From: an uncultured Bacilli bacterium
GTDB taxonomy: Bacteria; Bacillota_I; Bacilli_A; RF39; UBA660
Assembly: GCA_947628905.1 (NCBI GenBank)
Contig: CANRBQ010000002.1
Span: forward strand, 625 to 64,624
Reading direction: 5' to 3'
Length of the DNA: 64,000 nucleotides
The translations under genes and the position numbers were made by a program. The notes under the pieces are model-generated. The model was given only the letters and a program-made list of their open reading frames with translations, was not told where the DNA came from and did not search any database. Position 1 is the stretch's first letter. Every line of letters begins with the position of its first letter. Positions 4,575 to 64,000 of the stretch are shown in pieces.

Positions 4575-4609
4575 TTACTTTCAAAAAAAATACCACTCTA
4601 AAAAAGTGG

Positions 4610-4732
4610 TTATCTAGCTAAAACTTTACGACCTTTATTACGTCTACTTTTTAATACATTTGACTCTTTACGAGCAAAAAATCCATGCTTTTTAGCTTTC
4701 TTACGATTATTTGGTTGATAAGTTCTTTTCAT
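4610..4732 (-). CDS. rpmH: 50S ribosomal protein L34 (not in ORF track)
   Basis: Hand translation gives [40 protein letters not shown] (40 aa). GGAGGTGGAG lies upstream of the ATG. The product is about 4 aa shorter than typical L34. Confidence 0.9.
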
Positions 4733-4740
4733 GAGCTCCA

Positions 4741-5332
4741 CCTCCTTAAAAAATTTCAAGTATTTTAATTATAATATTTTCTAAGCCAATAGTCAAGAAT
4801 TTTAGCATATTAATACCTAATAACACATATAAATATATTAAATTTTATTTATCTTAAATTAATTACTCTCCTAACTAAAAATTATAAATCATTTAAAGTT
4901 ATCAACATTTTAATGTGGATAATGTGGATAATTTTTTTCATTCACATCTTATTAACAATCAAATATTTCTAAAAACTTATCCAAGTATTTCTTATAAACA
5001 TAGTTTTTCAATTAAAAAGTGTATAAATATCTACTTATTAACATATAGATTAAAAGATCAAAACCTAAATAATAACTAATAAAAATAACCATTTTAAATC
5101 AATTACTAACACATTCCACAATATAATCAAAAATATCAACTGTTAATTGTTAATTAAAATCAAATTCATTTTGTTAGTAATGTAGATAACTCTCCAATCT
5201 TGCATAAACACTAAGAAAAACTATGTTTATAACTTGTGAATAAAATTTTTTTACATTTTTAGCTTTATTTTCGACCTTTTTTGCGATACAATTAATTTAC
5301 AAAACATTAGGACTATAAGCGGGGTGAGGTTT
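4741..5332. other. oriC (rpmH-dnaA intergenic region with DnaA boxes)
   Basis: Two abutting perfect boxes TGTGGATAA at 4914-4922 and 4923-4931. One-mismatch boxes at 4899-4907 (TTATCAACA), 5181-5189 (TGTAGATAA), 5235-5243 (TGTGAATAA) and 5332-5340 (TATGGATAA, over the dnaA start). The spacer is very AT-rich. Confidence 0.85.
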
Positions 5333-6679
5333 ATGGATAAAGAAGAATTACTAAAAACATTTCTAGACAACATATATAAAGAAATAAATCCAGCATCATT
5401 TCATGCCTGGTTTAATGATTTAAAAATAGTTTCCCTAACCTCTACCAAAATAACTTTTGAAGTTCCTATGGAAATTCATAAACGGATGCTTGGTGATAAT
5501 TACTATTCATTAATTGAAAAAACATTATATAATATTAACAATATTAATTATGATATCGAATTTGTATTAGAAGAAGAACTAGATACTCTTCCTCCTCCAA
5601 CTGTTAATAAAGAAGAAGTTATCCACAATAACTTTAATACTAACCTAAACCCTAATCTTAATTTTGAAAACTTCGTTGTAGGAGATACCAATCGTTTAGC
5701 CAAAGTAGCCGCGATGGCCGTTGCCGAAGCTCCAGGCCGTATCCATAATCCTTTATTTATCTATGGTAAAAGTGGCCTTGGTAAAACTCATTTAATGCAC
5801 GCGATAGGTAATTATATTACTGCCAGCTCAAACCGTAAAGTACTATATTGTACCTGTGATGAATTTATGACCGAATATACTAACATTGCTAATCCTGATA
5901 ATGCCAAAAACACTTTAGAATACGCAACAGAATTTAAAAATAAATATCGCAATATTGATGTACTAATAATTGATGATATCCAATATTTAGTAGGTGCCGA
6001 AAAAACCCAACAAGAATTTTTTAACACTTTTAATTATCTGCATCAATCCAATAAACAAATAATCATTAGTAGTGATCGTTCCCCAGATGATTTAAAAATA
6101 TTAGAAGAACGTCTTAGATCTCGTTTTATGTGGGGCTTACCTGTTGATATTTATCCTCCCGATTTTGACTTAAGATGTCGAATTATTCGTAAAAAAATTG
6201 AAAACACCAGTCTAGCAAATTTAATGAAAGAAGAAAGCATTGAATATATTGCTAATGCTTGTCAAAATGATGTTAGATTCCTGGAGGGTGCTGTAAATAG
6301 ATTGATGGCATATACCGCTATGATTGTACCTAAAGTAATAGATTTAGAATTTACTTGTGAAGCTTTAAAAGATTTTGTTAATAAAAACATCTATTCTAAC
6401 AATAATATTACTAAAATCCAAAAAGCCGTCGCCGATCATTATAATATAACAATAGATGATTTAAAAGGTAAAAAAAGAAGTAATAAAGTCGCTCACCCAA
6501 GACAACTTGCTATGTATCTCTGCCGGCTCGAAACAGACGAAACATATCCTAGAATTGGCTTAGAATTTGGAGGACGTGATCATTCAACTGTCATATTTGC
6601 CTGTGATAAAATTGAAAAAGAACTTGTATCTAATGCCGAGCTAGAAAGGACAATCAAAGAAATAAAATCCAAATTGTAG
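5333..6679 (+). CDS. dnaA: chromosomal replication initiator DnaA
   Basis: AAA+ Walker A GKSGLGKTHL, box VII, C-terminal DNA-binding HSTV motif. The track start is GTG 5324; ATG 5333 is an equally plausible start. Confidence 0.97.
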   Translation: MDKEELLKTFLDNIYKEINPASFHAWFNDLKIVSLTSTKITFEVPMEIHKRMLGDNYYSLIEKTLYNINNINYDIEFVLEEELDTLPPPTVNKEEVIHNNFNTNLNPNLNFENFVVGDTNRLAKVAAMAVAEAPGRIHNPLFIYGKSGLGKTHLMHAIGNYITASSNRKVLYCTCDEFMTEYTNIANPDNAKNTLEYATEFKNKYRNIDVLIIDDIQYLVGAEKTQQEFFNTFNYLHQSNKQIIISSDRSPDDLKILEERLRSRFMWGLPVDIYPPDFDLRCRIIRKKIENTSLANLMKEESIEYIANACQNDVRFLEGAVNRLMAYTAMIVPKVIDLEFTCEALKDFVNKNIYSNNNITKIQKAVADHYNITIDDLKGKKRSNKVAHPRQLAMYLCRLETDETYPRIGLEFGGRDHSTVIFACDKIEKELVSNAELERTIKEIKSKL

Positions 6680-6824
6680 ATAAAACTTTAATTTAATGTT
6701 AATAAATAACTACTTATCAACAAAAAAAATCAATTATTTTGCCTTAAATAAAGGTCAAAAACAACTTACAAACATTACTAACAGTATAATAAATATTAAT
6801 ATATTTTAGAAAGAAGGAATAAAT

Positions 6825-7943
6825 ATGAAATTTACAATTGAAAAAAATATTTTATTAGAAGGATTAAACAATGTTATAAGAGCTATATCTACTAAGAATG
6901 TTATCCCCGTTTTAAATGGAATTAAATTTGAATTAACCACAGAAGGTTTATATCTAACTGCCAGTGATTCAGAATTAACAATTAAAGTTTTAATAGAATC
7001 TAAAGATATTAAACAAGTTACTAACTTAGGTGGTATTATTATTCAAAGTAAATATATCCTAGATATAGTAAGAAAGATGCCAAGTGATATTATTAACTTT
7101 GAAGTTATAGATGGTTTAAAAATTAAAATTTATACTGATAATAACCAATATAATTTAAATTGTTTAGATATTAATGATTATCCCGATGTTAAGTTAGAAC
7201 TTAGTAAAGAACCTATAATTATTAAAGGTGATATATTTAAAACTATTATTAATCAAACAGTATTTGCTATCTCTAATCAAGAATTAAGACCAATTCTAAC
7301 TGGTGTTAACTTTAAATTTAGTAAAGATGTTTTAGAAACAACAGCCACTGATTCATATCGTTTAGCTAAGAAAAACATTAAACTTGCTTCTCCCGTTGAA
7401 AAAGATATTGAAATAGTTATTCCTGGTAAAAATATTATGGAGTTGGAGCGAATTATCACTGATGAAGAAGATATCGAAATGCATATCTTTAATAATAAAG
7501 CATTATTTATATATAAAAATATTAACTTTCAAACTAATCTTTTAAGTGGTAATTATCCTAATACTAGTAATTTAATTCCTAGTGAATTTGCTTATATTAT
7601 TAAAGTTAATAAAAAAGACTTTAATGACGCGATAGATCGCGCGGCTCTTCTAACTCAAGGAAAAGATAAGAATATTGTCAAAATGTCTTTAGAAAATACT
7701 AAAATGATTATCAATTCTTATGCTTCCGAAATTGGTAAAGTAGAAGAACAATTAACAGTAGAAACTAATAATAAAGAGAAACTTGAAATTTCCTTCTCTT
7801 CTAAATATATGCTTGAAGCTATTAAAACAATGCAAGAAGATGAAATATTACTGTTATTAAATAGTGATGTTAAACCATTAATTATTAAATCATTAACAGA
7901 TGAATCACTAATTCAACTAATTTTACCTATAAAAACATATTAA
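6825..7943 (+). CDS. dnaN: DNA polymerase III beta sliding clamp
   Basis: 372-aa three-domain clamp homologue with dnaA-dnaN synteny. Confidence 0.96.
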   Translation: MKFTIEKNILLEGLNNVIRAISTKNVIPVLNGIKFELTTEGLYLTASDSELTIKVLIESKDIKQVTNLGGIIIQSKYILDIVRKMPSDIINFEVIDGLKIKIYTDNNQYNLNCLDINDYPDVKLELSKEPIIIKGDIFKTIINQTVFAISNQELRPILTGVNFKFSKDVLETTATDSYRLAKKNIKLASPVEKDIEIVIPGKNIMELERIITDEEDIEMHIFNNKALFIYKNINFQTNLLSGNYPNTSNLIPSEFAYIIKVNKKDFNDAIDRAALLTQGKDKNIVKMSLENTKMIINSYASEIGKVEEQLTVETNNKEKLEISFSSKYMLEAIKTMQEDEILLLLNSDVKPLIIKSLTDESLIQLILPIKTY

Positions 7944-8039
7944 TGCGACCAAAAACAAATATATAAGTCACAATTCGACAAATTTTGCCTTCTAAATATG
8001 ATATAACATAATTATTTATATGAAAGGAGGCAATTTTTC

Positions 8040-8492
8040 ATGCCTTATATTATCACAGAAAAAACCAATATCTTAATTCCTAAAAAAAGTATGACAGAAG
8101 TTATAGAAACAGAAAAAACATTTATTATTGAAGAAGAAACACTAGATGTCATTATGCATAATTGTTTTTTAAATGGTTCTAGTTTAGAAGGTAGACAACA
8201 TGGCAGTGCTTATCTTTTAGGTAGTTCTTATAAACCACCCATTATATTAAGTGAATTAGATAATTTAATATTTGTTCCAACGCATTCAATGCGTAATTTA
8301 AAATGTTGCTGGATTAACTTAGCTAATATCTTAAAATATTATCCTAGTAGTCCCGAAAAAGTAATAATTGAATTTAAAGATTTTCAAAAAATAGAATTAA
8401 ATATCTCTTATTATATTTTAGATAAACAAATATTGCGTGCAACTCGTTTAGAATCAACTTTAAGAGGTCGAAATCTAAAAAAACAACTTTAA
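8040..8492 (+). CDS. ComK-family protein
   Basis: GSSLEGRQHGSAYLLGSSYKPPIILSELDNLIFVPTHSMRNLKCCWIN aligns from memory with the B. subtilis ComK core GSSYAGRKAG...HKPPIMV...IFLFPTLS...CGWIS. GGAGG RBS upstream. Confidence 0.7.
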   Translation: MPYIITEKTNILIPKKSMTEVIETEKTFIIEEETLDVIMHNCFLNGSSLEGRQHGSAYLLGSSYKPPIILSELDNLIFVPTHSMRNLKCCWINLANILKYYPSSPEKVIIEFKDFQKIELNISYYILDKQILRATRLESTLRGRNLKKQL

Positions 8493-8580
8493 ATGGGTGC
8501 TATTTTATGATATAATATTCTTAGGTATAGGAGTACAACAACATACCAATTTTTAAAAATCAACAAAGTAGGGGCAAAAA

Positions 8581-9669
8581 ATGGAAATTAGAAGTTTAAA
8601 GTTAATCAATTTTCGTAACTATGAATCTCTTGAACTTAAATTTAGTTCCGAGACCAATATTATCTATGGTCAAAATGGCATGGGGAAAACAAATTTAGTT
8701 GAAGCGATTTATATTTTAGGTTTAACCAAAACTTTTCGTTTAGGTAATGAAAGTGTTATTATAAAAAAAGGCAAGAATATTACCAAAATTGAAGGTTTAA
8801 TCATGGATAATATCTTAAATAGTTATAAGATAGTGGTAAGTGATACAGGTAAACATATAAAAATTGATAATAACAAAATTTCTAAAATAAGCGATTATAT
8901 AACAAAAGTTAATGTAATATTGTTTAATCCTGATGATTTAAAAATAATAAAAGACACCCCTATGACTAGAAGAAGACTTTTAAATATTGAAATATCTGGC
9001 ATTAATAAAGAATATTTATTATATTTAAATAACTATAATAAACTTTTAAAACAAAGAAATTCTTATTTAAAAGCTCTTAGTAAAAAAAATAATTTCAATA
9101 GTGATTTTTTAAATATTTTAACCGCCGAACTTATTAATACAGGTTTAAAAATAGTAGCTATTAGGCAAGATTTTATCACAAATATTAATAAATATATTGC
9201 TGATATATATTTTAAAATCACTAACAAAGGTCATCTATCGTTAAATTATAAAAGTGAATATAAGAATAAAACGAAAGACCAATTATTAAATATGTACGAG
9301 AAAAATATTTCCCGGGAAATAATTATGGGCAAAACTCTCTTTGGTCCTCAACATGATGATATAGAATTTATAGTAGATAAAGAAATTGTTAAAGAATTTT
9401 CTTCTGTTGGTGAACAAAAAAACAGTGTTATTGCCTTTAAGCTTGCTGAAATAAAAAATATTGAAGATAGCTTACATAAAAAACCTATATTAATATTAGA
9501 TGATTTATTTAGTGAATTAGATCAAGAAAAAATAAATAATATCTTAACATTACTTGATGATAAGTTACAAACATTTATAACAACTACGGAAATAGATTTT
9601 GTTGACCCTAAGTTACTCGCCAAATCAAAAATATTTCATGTTATAAATGGTAAAGTAAAGGAGGAATAA
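8581..9669 (+). CDS. recF: DNA replication/repair protein RecF
   Basis: Walker A GQNGMGKTN and SMC-like signature/Walker B LILDDLFSELD. Confidence 0.95.
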   Translation: MEIRSLKLINFRNYESLELKFSSETNIIYGQNGMGKTNLVEAIYILGLTKTFRLGNESVIIKKGKNITKIEGLIMDNILNSYKIVVSDTGKHIKIDNNKISKISDYITKVNVILFNPDDLKIIKDTPMTRRRLLNIEISGINKEYLLYLNNYNKLLKQRNSYLKALSKKNNFNSDFLNILTAELINTGLKIVAIRQDFITNINKYIADIYFKITNKGHLSLNYKSEYKNKTKDQLLNMYEKNISREIIMGKTLFGPQHDDIEFIVDKEIVKEFSSVGEQKNSVIAFKLAEIKNIEDSLHKKPILILDDLFSELDQEKINNILTLLDDKLQTFITTTEIDFVDPKLLAKSKIFHVINGKVKEE

Positions 9670-11586
<1,917 letters not shown>

Positions 11587-11597
11587 GAGGTGTTTAA

Positions 11598-14042
11598 ATG
11601 GATAGATTAGAAAAAAATAATATTGTAAAAGAAGTAAAAGATTCATTTCTTGAATATTCAATGAGTGTTATCGTGGCCCGTGCCCTACCCGATTTAAGAG
11701 ATGGTCTAAAACCTGTTCATCGTCGAATTTTATATTCTATGTATGAATCTGGCTACACCCCAGATAAGCCTCATAAAAAAAGTGCTCGTATCGTGGGAGA
11801 TGTTATGGGTAAATATCACCCTCATGGAGATTCAAGTATTTATGAAGCTATGGTTCGTATGGCTCAAGATTTTAGCTATCGCTATATGTTGGTAGATGGT
11901 CATGGAAACTTTGGTAATATTGAAGGTTATGGCGCTGCAGCCATGCGTTATACTGAATCAAGATTATCTAAAATATCCTTGGAATTATTGAGAGATATTA
12001 GAAAAGATACCGTGAATTTTACTCCAAACTTTGATGAATCAGAACAAGAACCTGAAATATTGCCATCAAGATTTCCTAATATCTTAGTAAATGGAACTAC
12101 TGGAATCGCTGTTGGTATGGCAACTAATATTCCCCCTCATAATCTTGGCGAAGTAATTGATGGTTGTATAGCCTATATTGATAATCCCGAAATAGATACT
12201 ACTGGTTTAATGCAATATATTAAAGGTCCAGACTTTCCAACCGGTGCTATTATCTTAGGTAACTCGGGTATCAAAAAAGCTTATGAAACAGGCCGTGGCA
12301 GTATCACAATTCGTTCTCGTGCCGAAATAGAAGAAAAAAATGGTCGAGAATATATAGTTATTACCGAAGTTCCTTATGGAGTTAATACTTTAGAATTAAA
12401 AAATAAAGTTGCCGAATTAGTTCATAATAAAGTATTAGATGGTATTACAGACTATCATGTAGATTTAAAAGAAGGCGTTAAAATAACTATTACATTAAGA
12501 AAAGATGCTAATGCTCAAGTTATTTTAAATAAACTTTATAAACATACTGCTTTTCAAACAACCTATGGTATTATCTTCTTGATGCTCGATAATGGAGTTC
12601 CTAAAACTTTAGGCCTAAAAGATATTATTTCTAAATACATTGATTATCAAAAAGAAGTAATAATTCGTCGTACTAGATTTGATTTAGATAAAGCTGAAAA
12701 ACGTGTTCATATCTTAGAGGGCTTAAAAATAGCTCTAGATCACATTGATGAAGTAATTAAACTAATTCGTGGATCAAAGTCTGATGAAGAAGCAAAACAA
12801 GGCTTAATGGAGAGATTTGGCCTATCAGACGTTCAAGCAGAAGCTATTCTTGAAATGCGTTTAAGAAGATTAACAGGCTTAGAAAGAGATAAAATTGAAG
12901 AAGAACTAAATGAATTATTAAAATTAATTGATGAATTAAGAAGTATTCTTGCATCAGAAGAAAAAGTCTTAAATATTATAAAAGAAGAATTATTAGAAAT
13001 AAAAGATAAATATAATGATAAACGTCGTACTGATATAGATATGACTGCAATAGAATATATCGAAGATGAATCACTTATCCCAGAAGAAGATATCCTTATT
13101 GCATTAACTAATAAAGGTTATATAAAACGTACCACTAGTGATACTTTTAAAGCTCAAAAACGTGGTGGAATGGGTATAAAAGGTATGACAACTAACGAAG
13201 AAGACTTTGTTGAACATATGATTAATTTAAGTAGCCACGATTACTTGTTGTTCTTTACTAATAAAGGTAAAGTTTATCGTCTAAAAGGTTATGAAATTCC
13301 AGAGTTTAATCGTCAGTCTAAAGGCTTACCAATTATTAATTTACTTCAAATAGATAAAGATGAAAGTATTAATACAATGTTAAGTGTAACCCCACAAGAA
13401 GATACGAAATTCCTGCTATTTGTTACCAAAAAAGGTTTAGTTAAGAAAACAGCAATAAGTGAATTTGAGAACATACGTACGTCAGGAAAGATATGTATAA
13501 ATCTTAAAGCATCAGACGAATTACTTGCTGTTAAAAAGACTAATGGTGATAATTTTGTCCTATTAGGTAGTGAAACTGGACGTATGGTTAAATTCCATGA
13601 AAAACATATCCGAGCAATGGGTAGAACCGCCAGTGGAGTTAAAGGTATAAATCTTGATGGTAGTAAATGTGTCTGTGCTGAAGTAGTAACAGAAGAAGAT
13701 AAAATATTGTTGGTAACTGAAAAAGGATATGGAAAAAAGACGTTAGTAAAAGAGTTTAGAGAAACAAGTCGTGGCAGCAAAGGTGTAAAAGCTCTAAATA
13801 TTACCGAAAAAAATGGTAATATATCAGCTGTCAAAGTTGTTGATGAAAGCAAAGAATTAATTATTATGACTAATACAGGAACAACCATGAGAATGTCATT
13901 AGAGCAAATAAATACTTTAAGTCGCGTAACTCAAGGTGTAAGATTAATTAATCTTAAAGATGATCAATACGTAACAACAATTAGTTTAGTAGATAAACAA
14001 CCACCAGAAGAAGAACAAATTGAAGAAAGTAATGCTGAATAA
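11598..14042 (+). CDS. gyrA: DNA gyrase subunit A
   Basis: Active-site [25 protein letters not shown]-terminal beta-pinwheel repeats. Confidence 0.98.
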
Positions 14043-14143: not shown

Positions 14144-14170
14144 TATCCAACCTTCAAAAAATCATCATAA

Positions 14171-14186
14171 TGTTCCACGTGGAACA
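14171..14186. other. parS site TGTTCCACGTGGAACA
   Basis: Perfect palindrome, extendable to AATGTTCCACGTGGAACATT. Matches the ParB/Spo0J consensus TGTTNCACGTGAAACA apart from the symmetric G. Confidence 0.7.
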
Positions 14187-14230
14187 TTCCAATTTAAAAT
14201 ATAAAGTTCTAAAATCCATAACATTTAAAA

Positions 14231-14239
14231 TTATCCACA
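14231..14239. promoter_or_regulatory. perfect DnaA box TTATCCACA
   Basis: Exact consensus, 1 nt from the next parS. Confidence 0.7.
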
Positions 14240-14240
14240 A

Positions 14241-14256
14241 TGTTTCACGTGAAACA
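14241..14256. other. parS site TGTTTCACGTGAAACA
   Basis: Exact match to the Firmicute parS consensus; perfect palindrome. Confidence 0.8.
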
Positions 14257-14396
14257 TTGCTACAAAAAAATAAATAATTAATATTTTATTAAAACAAAAA
14301 ATATATTTTTGATTATTATTAAAAATTAAAAAGCAATAATATTAAAATAATTTATTAAACAATATAATAAAATCAAAAAATAAAACTTACTAACAA

Positions 14397-14412
14397 TGTT
14401 TCACGTGAAACA
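14397..14412. other. parS site TGTTTCACGTGAAACA
   Basis: Identical copy. Confidence 0.8.
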
Positions 14413-14498
14413 TTGTAACAAAAAACATCTAAATTAAGAAAATAAAAACATTTTTATATAGAATCTTTACATAAAATAGTAAAAATTGCAAAAAAATA

Positions 14499-14555: not shown

Positions 14556-14632
14556 GTGCAACAAATATATTGTAACCTGGTCAGAACTGGAAAGTGGCAG
14601 CCATATCAATCTCTATTTGTGTGCACACTTTT
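14556..14632 (+). ncRNA. ffs: small (4.5S-type) signal recognition particle RNA
   Basis: CCUGGUCAGAACUGGAAAGUGGCAGCCA matches the universal helix-8 motif (GGUCAG...GGAA tetraloop...GCAGCCA). It is closed by GUGCAACAAAUA pairing with UAUUUGUGUGCAC, then a T-run. It overlaps the 5' end of tracked ORF 14594. Confidence 0.8.
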
Positions 14633-24340: not shown

Positions 24341-24793
24341 CTATTTTAAATACTTAGGACTATCTACTCTTCCTAATAAGTAATCAGCACTAATTTTATA
24401 TTTCTTACATATGTCATATAAAAATGAAGTTGATATCAAATATATTCCTTTTTCATAATTAGATAAAAGAGATCTATTAGTGTGCAGATATTCTGCAAGT
24501 TTTTGTTGTGTAATATTATTTTCTTTTCTAAAATTCTTAATTCTCAATCCTACATTAATTTTATCTATGCTAGTATTAAATTTACTACCAGTACTATCAT
24601 TAAAACCAAATAAATAATCAATAGAAACATCAAAATAATTTGCTAAAGAAATTAGATGTTTAACGGGAATAGTTTGTGTTTCCTTTTCATATCTTCCATA
24701 CAAACTTTTATCAATTTGCAAATATTTTGCTAGTTCTACTTGGGATATTCCTATCCTTTCACGTAAAAGTTGCAACTGAATACCATAATTCAT
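24341..24793 (-). CDS. XRE-family transcriptional regulator with two HTH domains
   Basis: Two Cro/C1-type HTH units (ISQVELAKYLQIDKSLYGRYE and ITQQKLAEYLHTNRSLLSNYE). Start moved to ATG 24793, after GGTGG. Confidence 0.85.
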   Translation of the reverse strand: MNYGIQLQLLRERIGISQVELAKYLQIDKSLYGRYEKETQTIPVKHLISLANYFDVSIDYLFGFNDSTGSKFNTSIDKINVGLRIKNFRKENNITQQKLAEYLHTNRSLLSNYEKGIYLISTSFLYDICKKYKISADYLLGRVDSPKYLK

Positions 24794-24869
24794 AATTATT
24801 ACCACCGCATACATTTTCTCATTAAAAGAAATTAAATAGTTATAAAGTGGACAAATGCCAACATTTTTC

Positions 24870-24898
24870 TTGACAATTTACACTTGCTAGATTATAAT
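24870..24898 (+). promoter_or_regulatory. sigma-A-type promoter of surface-protein paralog 1
   Basis: TTGACA, 17 nt, TATAAT. Confidence 0.65.
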
Positions 24899-24909
24899 TT
24901 TAGTATAAG

Positions 24910-24923
24910 TTAGAAATTTCTAA
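24910..24923. promoter_or_regulatory. perfect 14-bp palindrome TTAGAAATTTCTAA (operator candidate)
   Basis: Lies just downstream of the -10. An identical copy is at 63470-63483. Confidence 0.5.
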
Positions 24924-24960
24924 TATAATTGAGTAAATCAATTAGAAAGAAGAGAAAGGT

Positions 24961-26274
24961 ATGAGGATAGAGAAGTTAAGTAAAGGAAGAAAAAAGAAAG
25001 TAATATTAGCTATAACAATATTAGTATTGTTAATAGGAATAGTATATATAACAAATAGTAAAGCTAAATATCATGTAACAAGTAATATACAAATAGTTAA
25101 AGGTAAAGTAAGTTATAGTCCATATGATTTTCAAATTATGGCAATGTATAAAGAAGAAGATGGAGAAGATATAAAAATAGAAGAAATGCCTGATTATAGA
25201 TATGCAATAGATGAAGAAAGAAGCTATTGCATGAGAGGAGATTCAAAAATAACAGGAGTATTAAAAACCATAAATGGATATCATACAATATCTAAATTGC
25301 ATACTAATGATAAATGTTATCTATATTTTGAAAATAATTCTTGTGGAAGTGCCTGTCAAAAAATACTTAATAATAAAACGATTCTTACTAGGACAGATTT
25401 TAATACTATTTTTGAAGGTTCTACAACTAATAAAATATATCAAAGCACAGATGATGATGGAAATACATATTATTTCGCCGGCTCCCCAACAGATAATTTT
25501 CTAAAATTTGCTGGATTTTACTGGAGAATTATCCGAATAAATGGCAATGGTTCCATTCGTATAATATATGATGGTACATCTATTCATAATAATAATAATA
25601 GTGCTGCAGATAGAGAGATTTTTACAAGTGCATTTAATGCCAGTGAAAATGATAATATGTACGTTGGATATATGTACAAAGCAAATGAAGTTCACGGACT
25701 TTCAGTTTCTAGCAAAATAAAAACAGATTTGGATTCATGGTATAACAGTAAATTATCATCATATTTAGATATGTTTGAAATTAATGCTGGCTTTTGTAAT
25801 GATAGAAAAAATTCAACAAATCCTTCAACACCATGGGGAAGCGAAACAGATGATGGAGGTACAGGAACAACAGATACATATTATGGAGAGTACCTTCGTA
25901 ATAATAAACAACAGCCTACTTTTAAATGTGCAGACGAAAGAGACCTGTTTACAACAAAGGACTCACAAATTGGTAATAATGCATTAACCTACCCTATAGG
26001 CTTAATAACCATGGATGAAGTAGTATATGCAGGCGGCTTTGCTAATAATACTAATAGTTTTTATTTACGCACCGGTAAAGATTTTTGGACAATGACTCCT
26101 AAATCATTTAATAATACTAATAAAATTGCCTATGTTAGTATAGTTTCTGCAGATGGAGGAATAAGAGGATATGTAGAAACAAAATATCCACGAGGAGTAC
26201 GCCCTGTTTTAAATTTAAAATCTAATATCAATTTAACTGGAACAGGCACAGTAAGTGATCCATATTCAGCATAA
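24961..26274 (+). CDS. secreted/surface protein, paralog 1 of a three-member family
   Basis: N-terminal signal-anchor (KKKVILAITILVLLIGIVYI). Shared family motifs: SYCMRG, KCYLYF, YWRIIRINGNGSIRIIY, YVGYMY, GFCNDR, PTFKC, GNNALTYPIGLITMDEVVYAGGF, FWTMTP, GVRPVLNLK. Confidence 0.8.
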   Translation: MRIEKLSKGRKKKVILAITILVLLIGIVYITNSKAKYHVTSNIQIVKGKVSYSPYDFQIMAMYKEEDGEDIKIEEMPDYRYAIDEERSYCMRGDSKITGVLKTINGYHTISKLHTNDKCYLYFENNSCGSACQKILNNKTILTRTDFNTIFEGSTTNKIYQSTDDDGNTYYFAGSPTDNFLKFAGFYWRIIRINGNGSIRIIYDGTSIHNNNNSAADREIFTSAFNASENDNMYVGYMYKANEVHGLSVSSKIKTDLDSWYNSKLSSYLDMFEINAGFCNDRKNSTNPSTPWGSETDDGGTGTTDTYYGEYLRNNKQQPTFKCADERDLFTTKDSQIGNNALTYPIGLITMDEVVYAGGFANNTNSFYLRTGKDFWTMTPKSFNNTNKIAYVSIVSADGGIRGYVETKYPRGVRPVLNLKSNINLTGTGTVSDPYSA

Positions 26275-36922: not shown

Positions 36923-37087
36923 AATTGAAATAAATATTTTAAAAAATACTTGAAAAATTATAAATAATATTGTACACTAGAAATATATCATAGAAAAATA
37001 TGACATATATTGATATGTTTTGTCGATTGTAATGAAAAAGTAGAGCAAATAAGTTATAATGGACAAAGAATAAGAGGAGATATAAGC

Positions 37088-38560
37088 ATGGAATTTAAAT
37101 TTAAAAAGCCTTTGGTAGTGTTAAGTCTATCTATTTTAATAATACCTATAAGTATTGTTTCTATTTATAGTAAAGAAAAAGACTATAAAATAAAAGAAGA
37201 TAATATAGCTCAAAAAGAATATAATAGTTTATCTATGTTTATAGTTGATGGAGAAGACAAAACTTCAATAGATACTGTGCCTAGTGCAAATGAATATGAT
37301 CTAGACTCTCAAAGCTATTGCCTAAGAGGAAAAGACAAAATAACAGATGTTCTAACAAAGATAGATAATAACTTTGTATTTAAAGAATTACATACTGATG
37401 ATAAGTGTTATTTGTATTTTAGTAAAATAAAAACTCCATCAGAGGTAATACTTGCAAATAGTCCAACTCAAGGAGATGCTGGAGCAATAACAGGCCCAAG
37501 TTGTAATGGAAATAAAAATGAATCATGTCGGAGTAGTGGATCACCGGATAATAAGAAAAATAATATGGCGCAAAATGGAGTATTTTCTGCCGAAGATGAC
37601 TTTGGAACAAGTTATTACTTCAGAGGATATGTTCAGAATAACTGGGTAAAATTTGGTCAAGAAGGTAATGATGACTTATGGTGGAGAATCATCAGAGTCA
37701 ATGGAAATGGCACAATAAGATTAATATATGCTGGAAAGGGAAGTTCACCATCAACAACAGGCCCAAGTACTCAAATAGCTACAACTTATAGTGACAAAAT
37801 AAATCAAAAATATAATGCAGATTATGGTGATAATACATATGTAGGATTTATGTATGGACCAACAGGTCAAAGTAGCTATGGTGTCACACATGTAAATACT
37901 AATAAAAGTAAAATAATGACAGAATTAGAAACATGGTATGCAAAAACTACTTTAGGTAACTTAAGTTCTAAAATAGATGTAGATACAGGATTCTGTAATG
38001 ATAGAGGGTTAGCAGAAGCAGATCATGGAAATTATCTAGGACCTAATGGAGGATATAATAAAGTGCGAACAGCCTATGCCCCAGTAGATAGGGTATGGCA
38101 AAAAGAAAGTACAAGTGCTGATACAACACAAAGACCAACATTAAAGTGTGGTAAAGATGCCACGGCTCAAAAGAGAGATTTATTCACAGGACCAAGTGCT
38201 ACACCAGGAGGAACAGATGGCATTGACGGAAAAGTAGAAGGAAATAATGCACTTAGTATGCCAGTAGGTTTAATAACAAGTGATGAAGTAATATATGCAG
38301 GAGGATTTTTTGGACAGAACAATGATGGATATTGGTTATATACTAAGCAAGCTTATTGGACCATGTCTCCGTATCACTTTGGCGGCAGCTATGCTAACGT
38401 GTTCTCTGTGGGTTCGGGTGGCAACCTCCCCTACACAGGCGTGAACAGCACGTGGGGTGTGCGCCCAGTAATAAATCTGAAAGCTGATACAAATATCGAA
38501 TTTCAAGATCCAAGTGGTGCAGATAAAGGAACAACATCTAATCCATACATAGTCAAATGA
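37088..38560 (+). CDS. secreted/surface protein, paralog 2 (carries the GC-rich, A-poor patch)
   Basis: Start moved to ATG 37088 (MEFKFKK), after AAGAGGAG. Signal-anchor LVVLSLSILIIPISIV. Shares SYCLRG, KCYLYF, WWRIIRVNGNGTIRLIY, YVGFMY, GFCNDR, PTLKC, GNNALSMPVGLITSDEVIYAGGF, YWTMSP and GVRPVINLK with paralog 1. Confidence 0.85.
   Translation: MEFKFKKPLVVLSLSILIIPISIVSIYSKEKDYKIKEDNIAQKEYNSLSMFIVDGEDKTSIDTVPSANEYDLDSQSYCLRGKDKITDVLTKIDNNFVFKELHTDDKCYLYFSKIKTPSEVILANSPTQGDAGAITGPSCNGNKNESCRSSGSPDNKKNNMAQNGVFSAEDDFGTSYYFRGYVQNNWVKFGQEGNDDLWWRIIRVNGNGTIRLIYAGKGSSPSTTGPSTQIATTYSDKINQKYNADYGDNTYVGFMYGPTGQSSYGVTHVNTNKSKIMTELETWYAKTTLGNLSSKIDVDTGFCNDRGLAEADHGNYLGPNGGYNKVRTAYAPVDRVWQKESTSADTTQRPTLKCGKDATAQKRDLFTGPSATPGGTDGIDGKVEGNNALSMPVGLITSDEVIYAGGFFGQNNDGYWLYTKQAYWTMSPYHFGGSYANVFSVGSGGNLPYTGVNSTWGVRPVINLKADTNIEFQDPSGADKGTTSNPYIVK
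38360..38470 (+). other. compositionally aberrant segment (DGR variable-region-like)
   Basis: Hand count over 38375-38464: 55/90 G+C, 14/90 A, and 15 of 30 codons are NNC. Confidence 0.6.
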
Positions 38561-38684
38561 CGAAGTATGGATTAGAAAACACTTTTTGGGGGAGTGTAGG
38601 TTGGTGGTTCAAAATGACTCTTCATTTTGCTTACAAAACTTATAAAAATTTACTAATAGTAAACATAAACAATTGCCCTATATG

Positions 38685-38707
38685 CTCTCTATTTATTAGA
38701 GAGTTTT
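38685..38707 (+). terminator. terminator downstream of paralog 2
   Basis: CTCTCT / AGAGAG stem followed by TTTT. Confidence 0.6.
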
Positions 38708-38795: not shown

Positions 38796-40010
38796 ATGAA
38801 ATTAAAAGAAAAATTAACTATTCTAGCCGATGCTGCCAAATATGATGCTTCTTGTTCCTCCAGTGGTAGTACCCGTAAAAATGAAAATGGTATAGGTAAT
38901 GCATCTTATTCAGGAATCTGTCACTCTTTTGCTAGTGATGGTAGATGTATTTCTTTATTAAAAATATTATTAACTAATTGTTGTATTTTTGATTGTAAAT
39001 ATTGTTTAAATAGAAAAAGTAATAATATTAAAAGAGCTATATTTACTCCTGAAGAAATATGTACTATAACTATGAATTTTTATCGTCGTAATTATATTGA
39101 AGGCCTATTTTTAAGTTCTGGTATTATTAAAAGTCCAGATTATACCATGGAATTAATCATAAAAACTATTTCTCTTTTAAGAAATAAATATCATTTTAAT
39201 GGTTATATTCATGCGAAAGCTATTCCTGGTTCTTCTGATTATTTAGTTAAAAAATTAGGTAAACTAGTTGATAGAATGAGTGCTAATATTGAATTACCAA
39301 CGGAAAGTAGTTTAAAATTATTAGCTCCTGATAAAAAAGAAACAAATGTTACCACGATTATGAAAACTATCAAAGAAAATCGTAACACCAAGTTTACTCC
39401 CGCGGGAAGTAGTACTCAAATGATAATCGGGGCTACTAACGAATCTGATTTAGATATTATGTCTAAAAGTAGTTATATGTATTCCAATTATAATTTAAAA
39501 AGAGTCTTTTATTCAGCCTATATTCCTCTTAATAATGATAAATTATTACCAACCTTAAAAACACCACCCCTAACAAGAGAACATCGCTTATATGAGGCTG
39601 ATTGGCTTCTTCGTTATTATAATTTTAAAGTTGAAGATATTTTATCAATAGATAATCCTAATTTTAATTTACTTATTGATCCTAAATCCGACTATGCCCT
39701 TAGACATTTAAATGAATTTCCCAAAGAAATTAATACTGCCTCTTATTATGATTTATTAAAAGTTCCTGGGATTGGTATAACATCCGCGAAAAGAATAATT
39801 AAATCTCGAAAATATTTTAAAATAACTTTTAAAGATTTAAAAAATATGGGAATAGTTTTAAAAAGAGCCAGTTATTTTATTACTTGCAATGGAAAGTATT
39901 TTATTAATAAATCTTTATTTAATAAAGAATTTATTGAAAATAACTTAGTTTTAGAAACCCATCAAATAAATAAACCATCTATAACCCAATTAAGTTTATT
40001 TAATGAATAA
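38796..40010 (+). CDS. putative DNA modification/repair radical SAM protein
   Basis: CIFDCKYC (CX3CX2C) cluster motif and a C-terminal helix-hairpin-helix LLKVPGIGITSAKRII. Confidence 0.8.
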   Translation: MKLKEKLTILADAAKYDASCSSSGSTRKNENGIGNASYSGICHSFASDGRCISLLKILLTNCCIFDCKYCLNRKSNNIKRAIFTPEEICTITMNFYRRNYIEGLFLSSGIIKSPDYTMELIIKTISLLRNKYHFNGYIHAKAIPGSSDYLVKKLGKLVDRMSANIELPTESSLKLLAPDKKETNVTTIMKTIKENRNTKFTPAGSSTQMIIGATNESDLDIMSKSSYMYSNYNLKRVFYSAYIPLNNDKLLPTLKTPPLTREHRLYEADWLLRYYNFKVEDILSIDNPNFNLLIDPKSDYALRHLNEFPKEINTASYYDLLKVPGIGITSAKRIIKSRKYFKITFKDLKNMGIVLKRASYFITCNGKYFINKSLFNKEFIENNLVLETHQINKPSITQLSLFNE

Positions 40011-40761
40011 AATGTATATATATGATGGTACATTTCTAAATCTTTTAAGTTTAATTACTTTCCTAATTAAAAATAATATTAAACCCACTAATATAGTTAA
40101 TTCTAATTATGAACCTACTCTTTTAGATGAAATAATTAATATAAATATTGTTAATAACCCTAAAATTATTAACAATATTAAAAATATTTGGGGTTTAGAA
40201 ATATATAAAATTATGTTATATGTTTATTTTTCTGAAGATTCATATAAAGAATTAATAATTTATTATTTATATTTAAATTGTTTAAAATATAAAAGAAATA
40301 CACTAAATATGAGAAATTTAAAATGTGTATCTAAATCTTTAAAAATAGCTAAATATGTTAGTAATGAAGCTCATAAATTAAAAGGATTTGTTCGTTTTAA
40401 AGAATTAGAAAGCAAAGTCTTATATGCTGAGATATCTCCCACTAATAATTGCTTGTTAATATTAAGTGAACATTTTAAAAAAAGACTATCCCATGAATAT
40501 TGGTTAATAAAAGATGTTAAAAGAAACATGATAAGTATATATGATAAAAAGAATTATTATATTATTCCCGCATCTAATTTAAAATTAAATATAGAATTAA
40601 ATAAAAATGAACTAGAATTTGCCGATTTATGGTGCACATTCTATAATACAATTGGTATTAAAGAAAGATATAATGCCAAATTAAGATTAAATTTTATGCC
40701 TAAAAAATATTGGCGATATATTTTAGAAATGAGTGATGAAAATGAAAAAAGTAATAAGTAA
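40003..40761 (+). CDS. probable DNA metabolism protein (DUF4130 / UDG-related partner of the radical SAM protein)
   Basis: Overlaps the radical SAM gene stop. Size and the conserved HKLKGFVRF / FYNTIGIKERYN-type motifs fit the family as I recall it. Confidence 0.6.
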   Translation: MNKMYIYDGTFLNLLSLITFLIKNNIKPTNIVNSNYEPTLLDEIININIVNNPKIINNIKNIWGLEIYKIMLYVYFSEDSYKELIIYYLYLNCLKYKRNTLNMRNLKCVSKSLKIAKYVSNEAHKLKGFVRFKELESKVLYAEISPTNNCLLILSEHFKKRLSHEYWLIKDVKRNMISIYDKKNYYIIPASNLKLNIELNKNELEFADLWCTFYNTIGIKERYNAKLRLNFMPKKYWRYILEMSDENEKSNK

Positions 40762-42268
40762 TGATAAATTAAGTGAAAAAATGAAAGAAGCTATAAAACT
40801 ACTATGTGAACCTGTCAAAATGACTTTAGGCCCTAAAGGGAGAAATGCGATAATTGATCATTCAGCTTTCTCCCCTTTTATAACCAATGATGGCGTAACT
40901 CTCGCTGAAAATATCACTAGTGAAGATCCTATCATTAATACTATTTTAGAGCTAGCTAAAGAGTCATCAATTAAAACTAATGAACTCATCGGGGATGGCA
41001 CTACTACTACTTTAGTATTATTAGAAAATCTTTATTTACAAGGATTTGAACAAATAAAAAATGGGGAAAATCCTCTTATATTTAAAGAAGAATTAGATAA
41101 CGCTATAAATGAAGTTATTAATTATATTAAAGAAGAAAGTCATACTCCTAATAAAGAAGAATTAAACCATATCGCATCTATCTCATCTAGTTCTAAAGAA
41201 ATAGGTAAAATTCTTGTTAATGCTTATAACAAAGTAGGTAAAGATAATATTTTTATTACTGAAGGAGAAGAAAAAACAACTATTAACTATCTAAATGGTT
41301 ATCAAATAGAAACTAATTTAGCCTCTCCCTATTTTTTAAAAAATAATCTAACTATAAAATATAGTAATCCTAAAATATTAATTTATGATAATGATATTAA
41401 TTATTTAGAAGAAATAAGTTTTCTAATAAACTATATTAAAGAAAAAGAAATACCATTAATAATAATTGCTAAAGATTATAATCCCCTTCTAATTAATAAA
41501 ATAATAGATTTATATTTAAATGATAATATTCCTCTTATATTATTAAAAACCCCTTATTATGGTATAGAAGAACAAATAACTCTAAATGATATAGCTAAAA
41601 TATCTAATACTATTATTTATAAAGATTTAAATAATTTTAATTATAATAATTTAGGAACTTTAGAAAGTATTAGTATTAATAAAGAATTTACTAATTTAAA
41701 ATTTATTAAAAATAAAGAATTAAATATATATTTAAAACAAATTAAAAAAAATATCAATTCTAAATCTGATTTTGATATTAAAAGAATCGCTATGTTAAAT
41801 AAAGGTATTATAGAAATTAAAGTGGGAGCTCCTACTACTACCGAACGAAGAGAAAAAAAGATGCGTTATGATGATGCTTTATGTTCTTTAAAAATAGCTA
41901 AAGAAGGAGTTACAACTGGAGGTGGTTTAACTTATTTAAAGTGCAGTGCTAAATTATCCAATAAAAATCCTGCTTATCTTGTCTTAAAAGAAACATTAAA
42001 AAAGCCATTTGCTCAAATATTAACAAACGCAGCTTTAAACCCCCAAGATATATTTAATAAAATTCTTTCTTCTAATTATAGCTTAATATACAATGTTAAA
42101 AAAAATAATTATGAAGAAGTGAATAACACTGAAGTTATCGACAGTTCTAAAGTATTAATCATGGCTTTAAAAAATGCCTCATCTATTGCAAGTATGCTTT
42201 TAACAACTAATACTTTAATCATAAATGAATTTATAGAACCTAAAGAATCAATTATAAATGAAATATAA
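40733..42268 (+). CDS. divergent Cpn60/GroEL-family chaperonin homologue (no GroES, no GGM tail)
   Basis: VKMTLGPKGRNAII, ITNDGVTLA, GDGTTTT, SPYF, VGAPTTTERREKKMRYDDAL and TTGGG align colinearly with GroEL equatorial and intermediate motifs. Start is 40733 or 40742; both overlap the upstream gene. Confidence 0.8.
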   Translation: MMKMKKVISNDKLSEKMKEAIKLLCEPVKMTLGPKGRNAIIDHSAFSPFITNDGVTLAENITSEDPIINTILELAKESSIKTNELIGDGTTTTLVLLENLYLQGFEQIKNGENPLIFKEELDNAINEVINYIKEESHTPNKEELNHIASISSSSKEIGKILVNAYNKVGKDNIFITEGEEKTTINYLNGYQIETNLASPYFLKNNLTIKYSNPKILIYDNDINYLEEISFLINYIKEKEIPLIIIAKDYNPLLINKIIDLYLNDNIPLILLKTPYYGIEEQITLNDIAKISNTIIYKDLNNFNYNNLGTLESISINKEFTNLKFIKNKELNIYLKQIKKNINSKSDFDIKRIAMLNKGIIEIKVGAPTTTERREKKMRYDDALCSLKIAKEGVTTGGGLTYLKCSAKLSNKNPAYLVLKETLKKPFAQILTNAALNPQDIFNKILSSNYSLIYNVKKNNYEEVNNTEVIDSSKVLIMALKNASSIASMLLTTNTLIINEFIEPKESIINEI

Positions 42269-63429: not shown

Positions 63430-63458
63430 TTGACTTTTAAGATTATCAATTATATAAT
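63430..63458 (+). promoter_or_regulatory. sigma-A-type promoter of surface-protein paralog 3
   Basis: TTGACT, 17 nt, TATAAT, followed by the palindrome TTAGAAATTTCTAA at 63470-63483. Confidence 0.65.
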
Positions 63459-63519
63459 TTTAGTATAAGTTAGAAATTTCTAATATAATTGAGTAATCAA
63501 TTAGAAAGAAGAGAAAGGT

Positions 63520-64000
63520 ATGAGGATAGAGAAGTTAAGTAAAGGAAGAAAAAAGAAAATAGTATTAGTTATAACAATATTAGTATTGTTAATAGGAATA
63601 ATATATATAACAAATAGTAGAGCTAAATATCATGTAACAAGTAATATTCAAATAGTTAAAGGTAAAGTAAATTATAGTTTAGCAGATTTAAATGTTGTAG
63701 CTTTAAAAATACAAGAATCAGAGAATAGTGAAACGTACACTCCAACAGATGAAGTACCAACTGGAAACTATGAAGTTAATACGCAAAATAGCTATTGTAC
63801 ACTTCCAGGAGATAATATAGAACATAAAGATATTCCAATGGAATATAAAAATGGAAAGGTATATATAGGAATAAATCAAAAAGGAACAAAATGTTATGTT
63901 TTTTTAGATATAAGTAAACCATCAGAAAAAACATTAGCAAAACTGCATTTATCAAAAGCAGGAGATTTACCATCAGAGATAAGTACATATGCATGTGATA
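63520..64000 (+). CDS. secreted/surface protein, paralog 3 (5' partial; runs off the window; not in ORF track)
   Basis: Hand translation MRIEKLSKGRKKKIVLVITILVLLIGIIYITNSRAKYHVTSNIQIVKGKV... is nearly identical to the first ~50 aa of paralog 1 and then diverges. The frame is open to position 64000. Confidence 0.8.
   Translation, partial: MRIEKLSKGRKKKIVLVITILVLLIGIIYITNSRAKYHVTSNIQIVKGKVNYSLADLNVVALKIQESENSETYTPTDEVPTGNYEVNTQNSYCTLPGDNIEHKDIPMEYKNGKVYIGINQKGTKCYVFLDISKPSEKTLAKLHLSKAGDLPSEISTYACD

Follow-up and report, generated by a model that had tools for sequence, protein, structure and literature searches.

Why should a gene for a membrane-anchored surface protein, in a strongly AT-rich genome, carry a short G+C-rich island close to its 3′ end? 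The question is raised by a stretch of 64,000 nucleotides from an uncultured Bacilli bacterium (contig CANRBQ010000002.1; the whole of this stretch, as analysed, is called the window below), in which the island lies within the second of three paralogous genes, at 37088–38560 on the forward strand, whose predicted 490-residue product is identical to a database protein, P0001, encoded on an NCBI contig of 66,006 nt. A preliminary description of this DNA had read the island as the variable region (VR) of a diversity-generating retroelement (DGR), or the relic of one, served in trans. Our analysis supports that reading. We conclude that 38366–38467 is very likely the VR of a DGR target gene, and we are highly confident that its sequence was written by DGR retrohoming; the chances that it is still being diversified in this genome appear even. 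The patch would be poor in A, rich in C-ending codons and rich in G+C within an AT-rich genome because it was retrohomed from an adenine-marked template repeat (TR) with a fixed scaffold.

Composition and limits of the island

A base count of 38375–38464 returned A14 C25 G30 T21, or 55 G+C in 90 nt, so that the preliminary figures (55/90 G+C, 14 A) proved exact; the whole window has 26.5% G+C and 39% A. Among all 90-nt windows of the 64 kb, those highest in G+C lie at the VR site, with a maximum of 56 compared to 45 for the next independent peak, and every one of the 8 windows (out of 63,911) with at least 55 G+C falls there. The site is also the part of the window lowest in A. The natural unit, 38366–38467, is 102 nt long and contains 59.8% G+C and 16 A (z = 4.9 relative to all 102-nt windows), whereas the remainder of the gene has 32.8% G+C and 40.8% A. 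The reported abundance of NNC codons is likewise real, as 15 of the 34 codons in the unit end in C compared to 32 of 426 in the remainder of the gene. The open reading frame (ORF) opens at a TTG at 37010 and probably starts at the ATG at 37088; its translation places the VR at codons 427–460 of 490, in frame and near the 3′ end, and confirms that the island sits between the YWTMSP and GVRPV motifs with the reading frame intact. The equivalent interval of paralog 1, 26083–26208, is the ordinary AT-rich sequence that it had been said to be (33% G+C, 36.5% A).

Ordinary selection or chance could in principle produce such a composition, if codon choice were forced by a loop rich in Gly, Ser, Asn and Tyr, and the VR-encoded peptide does abound in G, S, N and Y. 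Paralog 1, however, encodes a comparable loop with AT-rich codons, and among synonymous codons the window VR makes precisely the choices (GTG, TTC, TCG, GGC, CTC, ACG, CGC and CCA) that TRs of other genomes make. These TR matches contradict an explanation by codon choice, which we find hardly credible.

The 102-nt unit, TCTCCG...GGTGTGCGCCCA (38366–38467, forward strand, as are all features of this gene given below), is the stretch homologous to TRs, and its differences from them are concentrated at TR adenines. At the 5′ boundary of this homology, (A)TGTCTCCG (38363–38371) is common to VRs and TRs in our alignments. At the other end, the VR and the TRs share a G+C-rich 3′ element, GGTGTGCGCCCA (38456–38467), that resembles the initiation of mutagenic homing (IMH) element. 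Past GGTGTGCGCCCA the copies diverge, with VRs going on GTAATAAAT (RPVIN) and TRs going on ATATCC.

The same scaffold in related gut genomes

Public collections scanned with the common scaffold GTGTTCTNTGTGNNTTCGNNTGGCNNCCTC yielded 72 loci in ~25 related metagenome-assembled genomes (MAGs) plus 3 viral contigs and 29 metagenome loci. The related genomes, all of them draft MAGs, are labelled uncultured Bacilli, Mycoplasma sp. CAG:776, Tenericutes or Candidatus Caccenecus and come from human, mouse, rabbit and chicken gut. Copies of the scaffold fall into two classes, in-frame and intergenic. Those of the VR type stand in target genes, start TGGACNATGTCTCCG, are poor in A and end GGTGTGCGCCCA-GTAATAAAT; those of the TR type are intergenic, rich in AAC and end GGTGTGCGCCCA-ATATCC. 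TR and VR units are 93–120 nt long, without exception in multiples of 3, and in the relatives TRs normally lie at a distance from VRs, on other contigs. The homologue P0006 (MAG GCA_947630575.1) shares ~64% protein identity with P0001 in query-based BLASTP, or 56% across alignment A1, and its VR DNA is identical to the window VR at all scaffold positions while differing at ~20 positions.

A local G+C content of ~60% in a 26% genome also suggested a patch recombined from a high-G+C donor, which the preliminary description had offered as its alternative. We reject this horizontal mosaic as extremely improbable. Base by base, VRs and TRs of relatives with ~27% G+C carry this same scaffold, which occupies the equivalent site in dozens of paralogues and orthologues from genomes just as rich in A+T and recurs in their intergenic TRs; the boundaries of the patch coincide with those of TR homology rather than with a segment of a foreign homologue; and no high-G+C homologue matching the patch together with its flanks was found.

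The preliminary description had proposed a search for sequences identical to the patch save at their own A positions, and these exist, as intergenic TRs in related genomes. All TR comparisons of the window VR use TRs of related genomes rather than of its own. Compared to the closest TR (L003:5788), the window VR differs at 16 of 31 A sites and at 4 of 71 non-A sites (Fisher p = 3.7e-7); compared to the consensus of 11 TRs of the same length, it differs at 18/33 A and 3/69 non-A sites. Comparisons within single related genomes show the canonical pattern: in the L031 pair, which has its TR 500 nt 3′ of the VR, there are 16 A-site changes and 0 others, and the L001 and L068 VRs show 16 A-site changes and 1 other relative to the TR in L003. 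When four cognate pairs from relatives were pooled, 61 of 130 A sites had changed compared to 6 of 287 non-A sites (p = 1.6e-29). Where the TRs have adenine, the VR columns have an entropy of 1.39 bits, compared to 0.22 bits where they are free of A (p = 2.7e-14). At the TR-adenine columns VRs bear C, G and T in all combinations, bases that are found in no TR copy, whereas non-A columns are faithfully copied from TR to VR. We know of no process except DGR mutagenic retrohoming that yields such an adenine-specific signature.

One pair of alleles captures a replacement of the whole unit. P0025 (ENA contig) and P0176 (MAG GCA_947631655.1), the pair at L114:1014-2768 and L115:2025-3791, have 0 mismatches in 2,795 nt; to this total the 5′ flank contributes 900 nt, the gene 1,557 nt plus 90 nt at its 3′ end, and the 3′ flank 248 nt. 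Enclosed by TCTCCG and GGTGTGCGCCCA, the two VRs are unrelated and measure 108 and 120 nt, and the replacement, which starts at TCTCCG and ends at the GGTGTGCGCCCA element, is exact to the TR boundaries. Cognate TRs of these alleles were not recovered; the simplest reading would be that one gene was overwritten from another template out of a library. In L115, a phage MuF_C gene lies ~1 kb upstream of the target gene.

VR-type copies are also present in genes of the viral-classified contigs L005, L006, L007, L128 and L140 (IMG/VR), and the parts of these contigs that we examined contained neither a TR unit nor a reverse transcriptase (RT). Templates encoded by the host may serve to rewrite phage proteins; alternatively, a phage may carry the RT elsewhere. 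Searching IMG/VR with the VR-type junction returned 5 true family VRs, the TR-type junction gave chance matches only, and phage blastn with one TR unit gave no match.

Template RNA genes and a presumed enzyme in trans

In the relatives, each TR lies inside its own unit of ~300 nt, in the order −10 box (TATAAT), 5′ strand GGTTAATCT, TR, ~75-nt spacer and 3′ strand AGATTAAYC. The −10 box is conserved in an alignment of 67 TR units, and a hairpin followed by a T-run (a terminator, judged by eye) closes most of the units inspected. The 5′ and 3′ strands pair as a long-range helix that encloses the TR, and UAUCCU/AGGAUA forms a second helix. Across the 67 units, 99% of cells were paired, compensatory double changes occurred in 8 of 15 pairs (for example, GGAAUAUCU/AGAUAUUUCC and GGCUAAUCU/AGAUUAGCC), and 0 of 500 shuffles matched this support. 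A covariance model built from the TR end and spacer identified 105 units in genome loci and 37 in metagenome loci, 142 in all; it found no match in BPP-1 or phage nd4, and Rfam assigned no family to a TR array. TR units are often in tandem, in arrays of up to 15: L058:500-4950 holds 15 units and L073:1150-4600, between uvrA and a pilin-like gene/tdk, holds 12 model matches (11 units by eye), each with a period of ~300 nt. In places the arrays alternate two unit types, with closing helices GGTTAATCT/AGATTAATC and GGAATATCT/AGATATTTCC. The alignments show the TRs, judged by their sequence, to be separate structured RNA genes, often in tandem arrays. For the DGR acting in trans that was originally proposed, templates are seen in relatives, and their arrangement as free-standing RNA-gene arrays goes beyond that proposal.

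The recurrent neighbours of TRs are HTH_3 genes, pseudopilins and DUF1016 genes, with no recurrent small ORF of a novel type. DUF1016/YhcG genes (PD-(D/E)XK nuclease-like) recur next to TR units or targets, as at L003:8310-9218, L001:8896-9801, L118:18879-19787 and other sites. The pseudopilin genes, whose products bear an N-terminal methylation motif, are likewise repeated neighbours of TR units and target genes in related MAGs.

In the Neisseria pilS/pilE and Borrelia vls systems, unexpressed donor arrays feed one expressed site. RT-independent cassette recombination of the pilS, vls or MgPar type, that is, gene conversion from silent TR cassettes, would accommodate arrays of up to 15 silent copies, the swap of a whole cassette between alleles with sharp boundaries, and the absence of an RT from the 922 kb that we searched. 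We nevertheless regard it as improbable. Donor arrays are what the present system has in common with silent-cassette systems; adenine-specific mutagenesis and the anatomy of an RNA gene set it apart. The VRs are not mosaics of the TRs: gene conversion cannot create the bases that VRs carry at TR-adenine columns because these bases are absent from every donor copy. Moreover, each TR has a −10 box and covarying structure, and most of those inspected have a terminator, which together argue for an RNA intermediate.

The set searched for RT and Avd comprised the window and 113 related loci (922 kb in total, with 142 TR units and ~45 VRs). Several results weigh against the reading of the island as a DGR-written VR. 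The window contained no TR unit, whether by an ungapped A-tolerant scan, by a repeat finder or by the covariance model with filters off (best E = 0.24). Neither the window nor the 922 kb contained an RT, as judged by motif regexes and by phmmer and tblastn with BPP-1 Brt and phage nd4 RT, and precomputed Pfam labels revealed none in ~66 kb more of MAG GCA_947630575.1. BPP-1 Avd detected no Avd homologue in the window or related loci, although a single-sequence query is weak for so small and fast-evolving a protein. At 3–4 non-adenine positions the window VR departs from foreign TRs; this may reflect variation of the TR between species, or else drift in a VR that is no longer in use. Members of several related 90% clusters carry identical VRs, and the 90% cluster of P0001 has one member, a single sequence on record. 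Finally, PDB structures compared to the model of P0001 described below gave C-type-lectin matches that were only short and non-significant (E > 2).

The scans, the covariance model and the phmmer and tblastn searches agree with the initial caveat that no RT, Avd or TR is visible in the 64 kb. That description had also suggested looking for a TR beside an RT ORF; TRs were found in relatives, but not one of the 142 adjoins an RT. Brt is a sensitive query, since 130 diverse DGR RTs of Bacteroides, Faecalibacterium, Bacillus and archaeal viruses were retrieved with it. No RT turned up on the viral contigs that carry VRs of this family, and an ORF containing YIDD, considered as an RT, was negative on Pfam. 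A 'same base or A' pattern of the VR had 0 matches in the genome contig collection, which does not include the source genome; the VR itself was likewise unmatched. Exact look-ups of the proteins P0001, P0002 and P0004 returned no record. Because an RT was absent from all searched loci, we infer the DGR enzyme rather than see it. The RT would act in trans, and this genome would possess a cognate TR of its own. Some target genes are on viral contigs or adjoin a phage MuF gene; the RT is possibly on an unbinned mobile element, and the model could be extended to a mobile element, left out of the genome bins, as the source of the RT.

The same absences can be read differently, with the VR as a relic that was written by a DGR earlier and frozen once the TR, the RT or both were lost. 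The lack of any TR unit or RT in 64 kb, the 3–4 non-adenine differences from the nearest TRs and the identical VRs within several related 90% clusters all favour a relic, and Treponema denticola isolates that lack the core DGR do retain VR-bearing target genes (PMC4891356). However, the VR is in frame and keeps 66 of the 69 non-A scaffold positions of the TR consensus, and recent VR replacement is seen in the family. Furthermore, TRs in relatives are usually far away or on other contigs, and their absence from one 64-kb window therefore says little. A relic agrees fully with what is known of this genome; on balance, we regard it as a serious possibility, albeit a somewhat unlikely one.

For a VR that was written by a DGR, we propose the following mechanism. 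A template RNA transcribed elsewhere in the genome, bearing an AAC-rich, adenine-marked 102-nt copy together with the long-range helix and structured spacer, would be copied by a DGR-type RT that acts in trans and misreads adenines. The cDNA would then replace the TCTCCG-to-GGTGTGCGCCCA segment by way of the short homology at its 5′ end and the G+C-rich element at its 3′ end. As a result, ~13 codons on the ligand-binding face or exposed loop of the membrane-anchored surface protein would be randomised and the scaffold codons would stay fixed. Different members of an array would be writable into one target. In its broadest form, to which we are evenly disposed, the model is a two-tier DGR with libraries of up to 15 or more autonomous, RT-unlinked template-RNA genes (93–120 nt), any of which could be written into the target family by way of the TCTCCG and GGTGTGCGCCCA ends. 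If this model is true, the target changes by choice of template, which sets the scaffold and loop length, in addition to adenine mutagenesis.

The target family, its surroundings and known systems

P0001 is predicted to begin with a membrane helix, followed by a beta-sandwich and then by a large DUF6273-like C-terminal domain that carries the VR near its C-terminus. Its family is large (>2,000 homologue matches), and across homologues the segment from YWTMSP to GVRPV varies whereas the remaining domain is well conserved. An AlphaFold (AF2) model computed from 88 homologues was confident, with a pLDDT of 89.9, and placed a helix at residues 11–26; its best structural matches in BFVD were gut-phage proteins annotated DUF6273 (E = 5.5e-6 to 6e-3, probability 0.97–0.98). 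Pfam assigned no family to P0001 at E ≤ 0.01, the threshold of PF19789 (DUF6273) not being reached, and a profile search for sequence relatives with a solved structure returned nothing significant. Paralog 1 has a weak DUF6273 match (21.2 bits, below the cut-off of 23.5), and PF19789 matches are precomputed for several homologues of P0001. Based on the model, the target protein family appears DUF6273-like. Published work describes DUF6273 as C-type-lectin-like and as a DGR target whose VR lies at its C-terminal end (PMC10743442, PMC11792537). The fold guessed in the preliminary description was therefore roughly right in that the domain appears DUF6273-like, but a C-type-lectin fold drew no support from solved structures; similarly, the structure prediction that it had suggested gave a confident model with DUF6273 phage matches but non-significant C-type-lectin matches in the PDB.

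Many members of this family appear not to be DGR targets. Paralog 1 (24961–26274, forward strand), of 437 aa and the same family, is by its sequence not a DGR-written copy, because its VR-equivalent at 26083–26208 is ordinary AT-rich DNA. More distant relatives of 805 and 851 aa (Mycoplasma sp. CAG:472-type, in large 90% clusters) are 96–100% identical with a VR that is not hypervariable, and look like non-DGR family members; like paralog 1, they indicate that many members are not DGR targets. Paralog 3 (P0097, 514 aa) starts at 63520 on the forward strand and continues past the window end (63520–64000), so that its VR-equivalent DNA is outside the window; the corresponding peptide, SPYFFYNSGSSQYASVFIVYSSGTLTSDRVDGANGVRPV, looks DGR-written and of a longer length class.

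Paralogs 1 and 3 share a duplicated promoter and 5′ region (24870–25158 and 63430–63717, 84–89% identity), and a double helix-turn-helix XRE-type regulator at 24341–24814 on the reverse strand is divergent from paralog 1. Small HTH_3 genes occupy the corresponding upstream position of target genes in L003, L117 and L119, and paralog 2 has none.

The target gene is monocistronic, flanked by a terminator after secG and by its own terminator-like hairpin and T-run at 38684–38704, which ends it. Two further hairpins precede that terminator. The first (38537–38576) has 19-nt arms, extends across the stop codon and lies 70 nt past the VR; a similar CCATAC..GTATGG hairpin follows ~9 of 37 related VRs in the same place, and the element may be a VR-flanking hairpin as in other DGRs or part of a terminator. 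The second, small hairpin (38607–38629) is GGTTCAAAATGA-CTCT-TCATTTTG (elsewhere written GGTTCAAAATGA-CTCT-TCATTTTGAACC), with arms at 38610–38617 and 38622–38629, and this element is conserved 3′ of target genes elsewhere, with 11–12-nt arms in L058, L067 and L054.

The upstream neighbours encode SecG and RsmG/GidB, and those downstream (38796–42268) encode a radical-SAM/helix-hairpin-helix protein, a DUF4130 protein and a 511-aa Cpn60/TCP1-family chaperonin with a GTG start. Pfam detected no DGR components among these neighbours, and the downstream genes form an unusual trio with apparently no relation to a DGR. Farther away, three copies of a ~50-nt repeat centred on the palindrome AATGTTTCACGTGAAACATT (14150–14425) lie upstream of a gene at 14594 and resemble an operator array. 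The region 4600–14042 appears to be a replication-origin neighbourhood, with ORFs in a dnaA-dnaN-recF-gyrB-gyrA-like order (named by size and order only); the cumulative GC skew has its minimum near 5–6 kb, and gene orientation flips at the same place.

Compared to the BPP-1 cassette (mtd-VR, avd, TR, spacer, brt), the present system is alike in its adenine-specific TR-to-VR differences, in the location of the VR at the 3′ end of the target ORF, in a G+C-rich TR/VR 3′ element followed by divergence (IMH vs IMH*-like), in a structured spacer RNA past the TR and in AAC-rich TR codons. It differs in that neither TR nor VR is linked to an RT or Avd, that the TR forms an independent gene, with a −10 box and in most inspected units a terminator of its own, instead of being fused to the RT transcript, and that TRs are multiplied into arrays, with a lineage spacer model that misses both BPP-1 and phage nd4. 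Retron msr-msd RNAs are closed by a long-range helix; the units described here share with retrons a non-coding RNA that has such a helix, but have no adjacent RT.

Remote (non-adjacent) targets were reported for 45 of 372 DGRs in the survey of Wu et al. (PMC5758913). As in remote-target DGRs such as that of Treponema denticola, paralogous targets here are scattered on the chromosome and would be served in trans (PMC5758913), and the persistence of T. denticola target genes in strains without the core cassette (PMC4891356) is a further likeness. Those systems have one TR, in the RT cassette, whereas many TRs (93–120 nt) are present per genome here and 0/142 lie beside an RT. The 'tentaclins' of phages nd4 and nd12 and the targets of Faecalibacterium prophages would belong to the same target domain family, DUF6273, for which a VR at the C-terminal end and a fold like that of C-type lectins have been described, and phage DUF6273 proteins are the best structural matches of our model. 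Their cassettes, however, have adjacent RT and Avd and one TR each; nd4 has 62% G+C and no sequence relation to the present TR family; and the targets here are mostly chromosomal and membrane-anchored, with P0001 itself lacking a Pfam DUF6273 match. A 2024 MAG survey listed 53 DGR cases with two or more TRs (PMC11661182), which resemble the present system in having more than one template but are RT-centred cassettes with a couple of TRs.

DGR VRs, remote targets, multi-TR cases and DUF6273 targets were thus already known, and the VR of the window is a further such VR; the template arrays look new. In the literature that we searched, there was no description of tandem arrays of 9–15 autonomous, RT-unlinked template RNA genes, nor of template swapping. 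DGR surveys begin from the RT gene and seek repeats beside it (PMC8144416), and free-standing template RNA genes far from an RT would therefore be missed or undercounted by RT-centred surveys. Compact, self-contained template RNA genes of defined structure may also be of interest for the DGR-based directed-evolution tools that are in development. For the organism, this reading would account for an odd compositional island: a surface protein of a poorly known, uncultured gut lineage ('Bacilli' MAGs related to Mycoplasma sp. CAG:776) would contain a site of programmed hypermutation. Arrays of templates that differ in length would supplement adenine mutagenesis with alternative scaffolds and loop lengths, as is consistent with the one allele swap.

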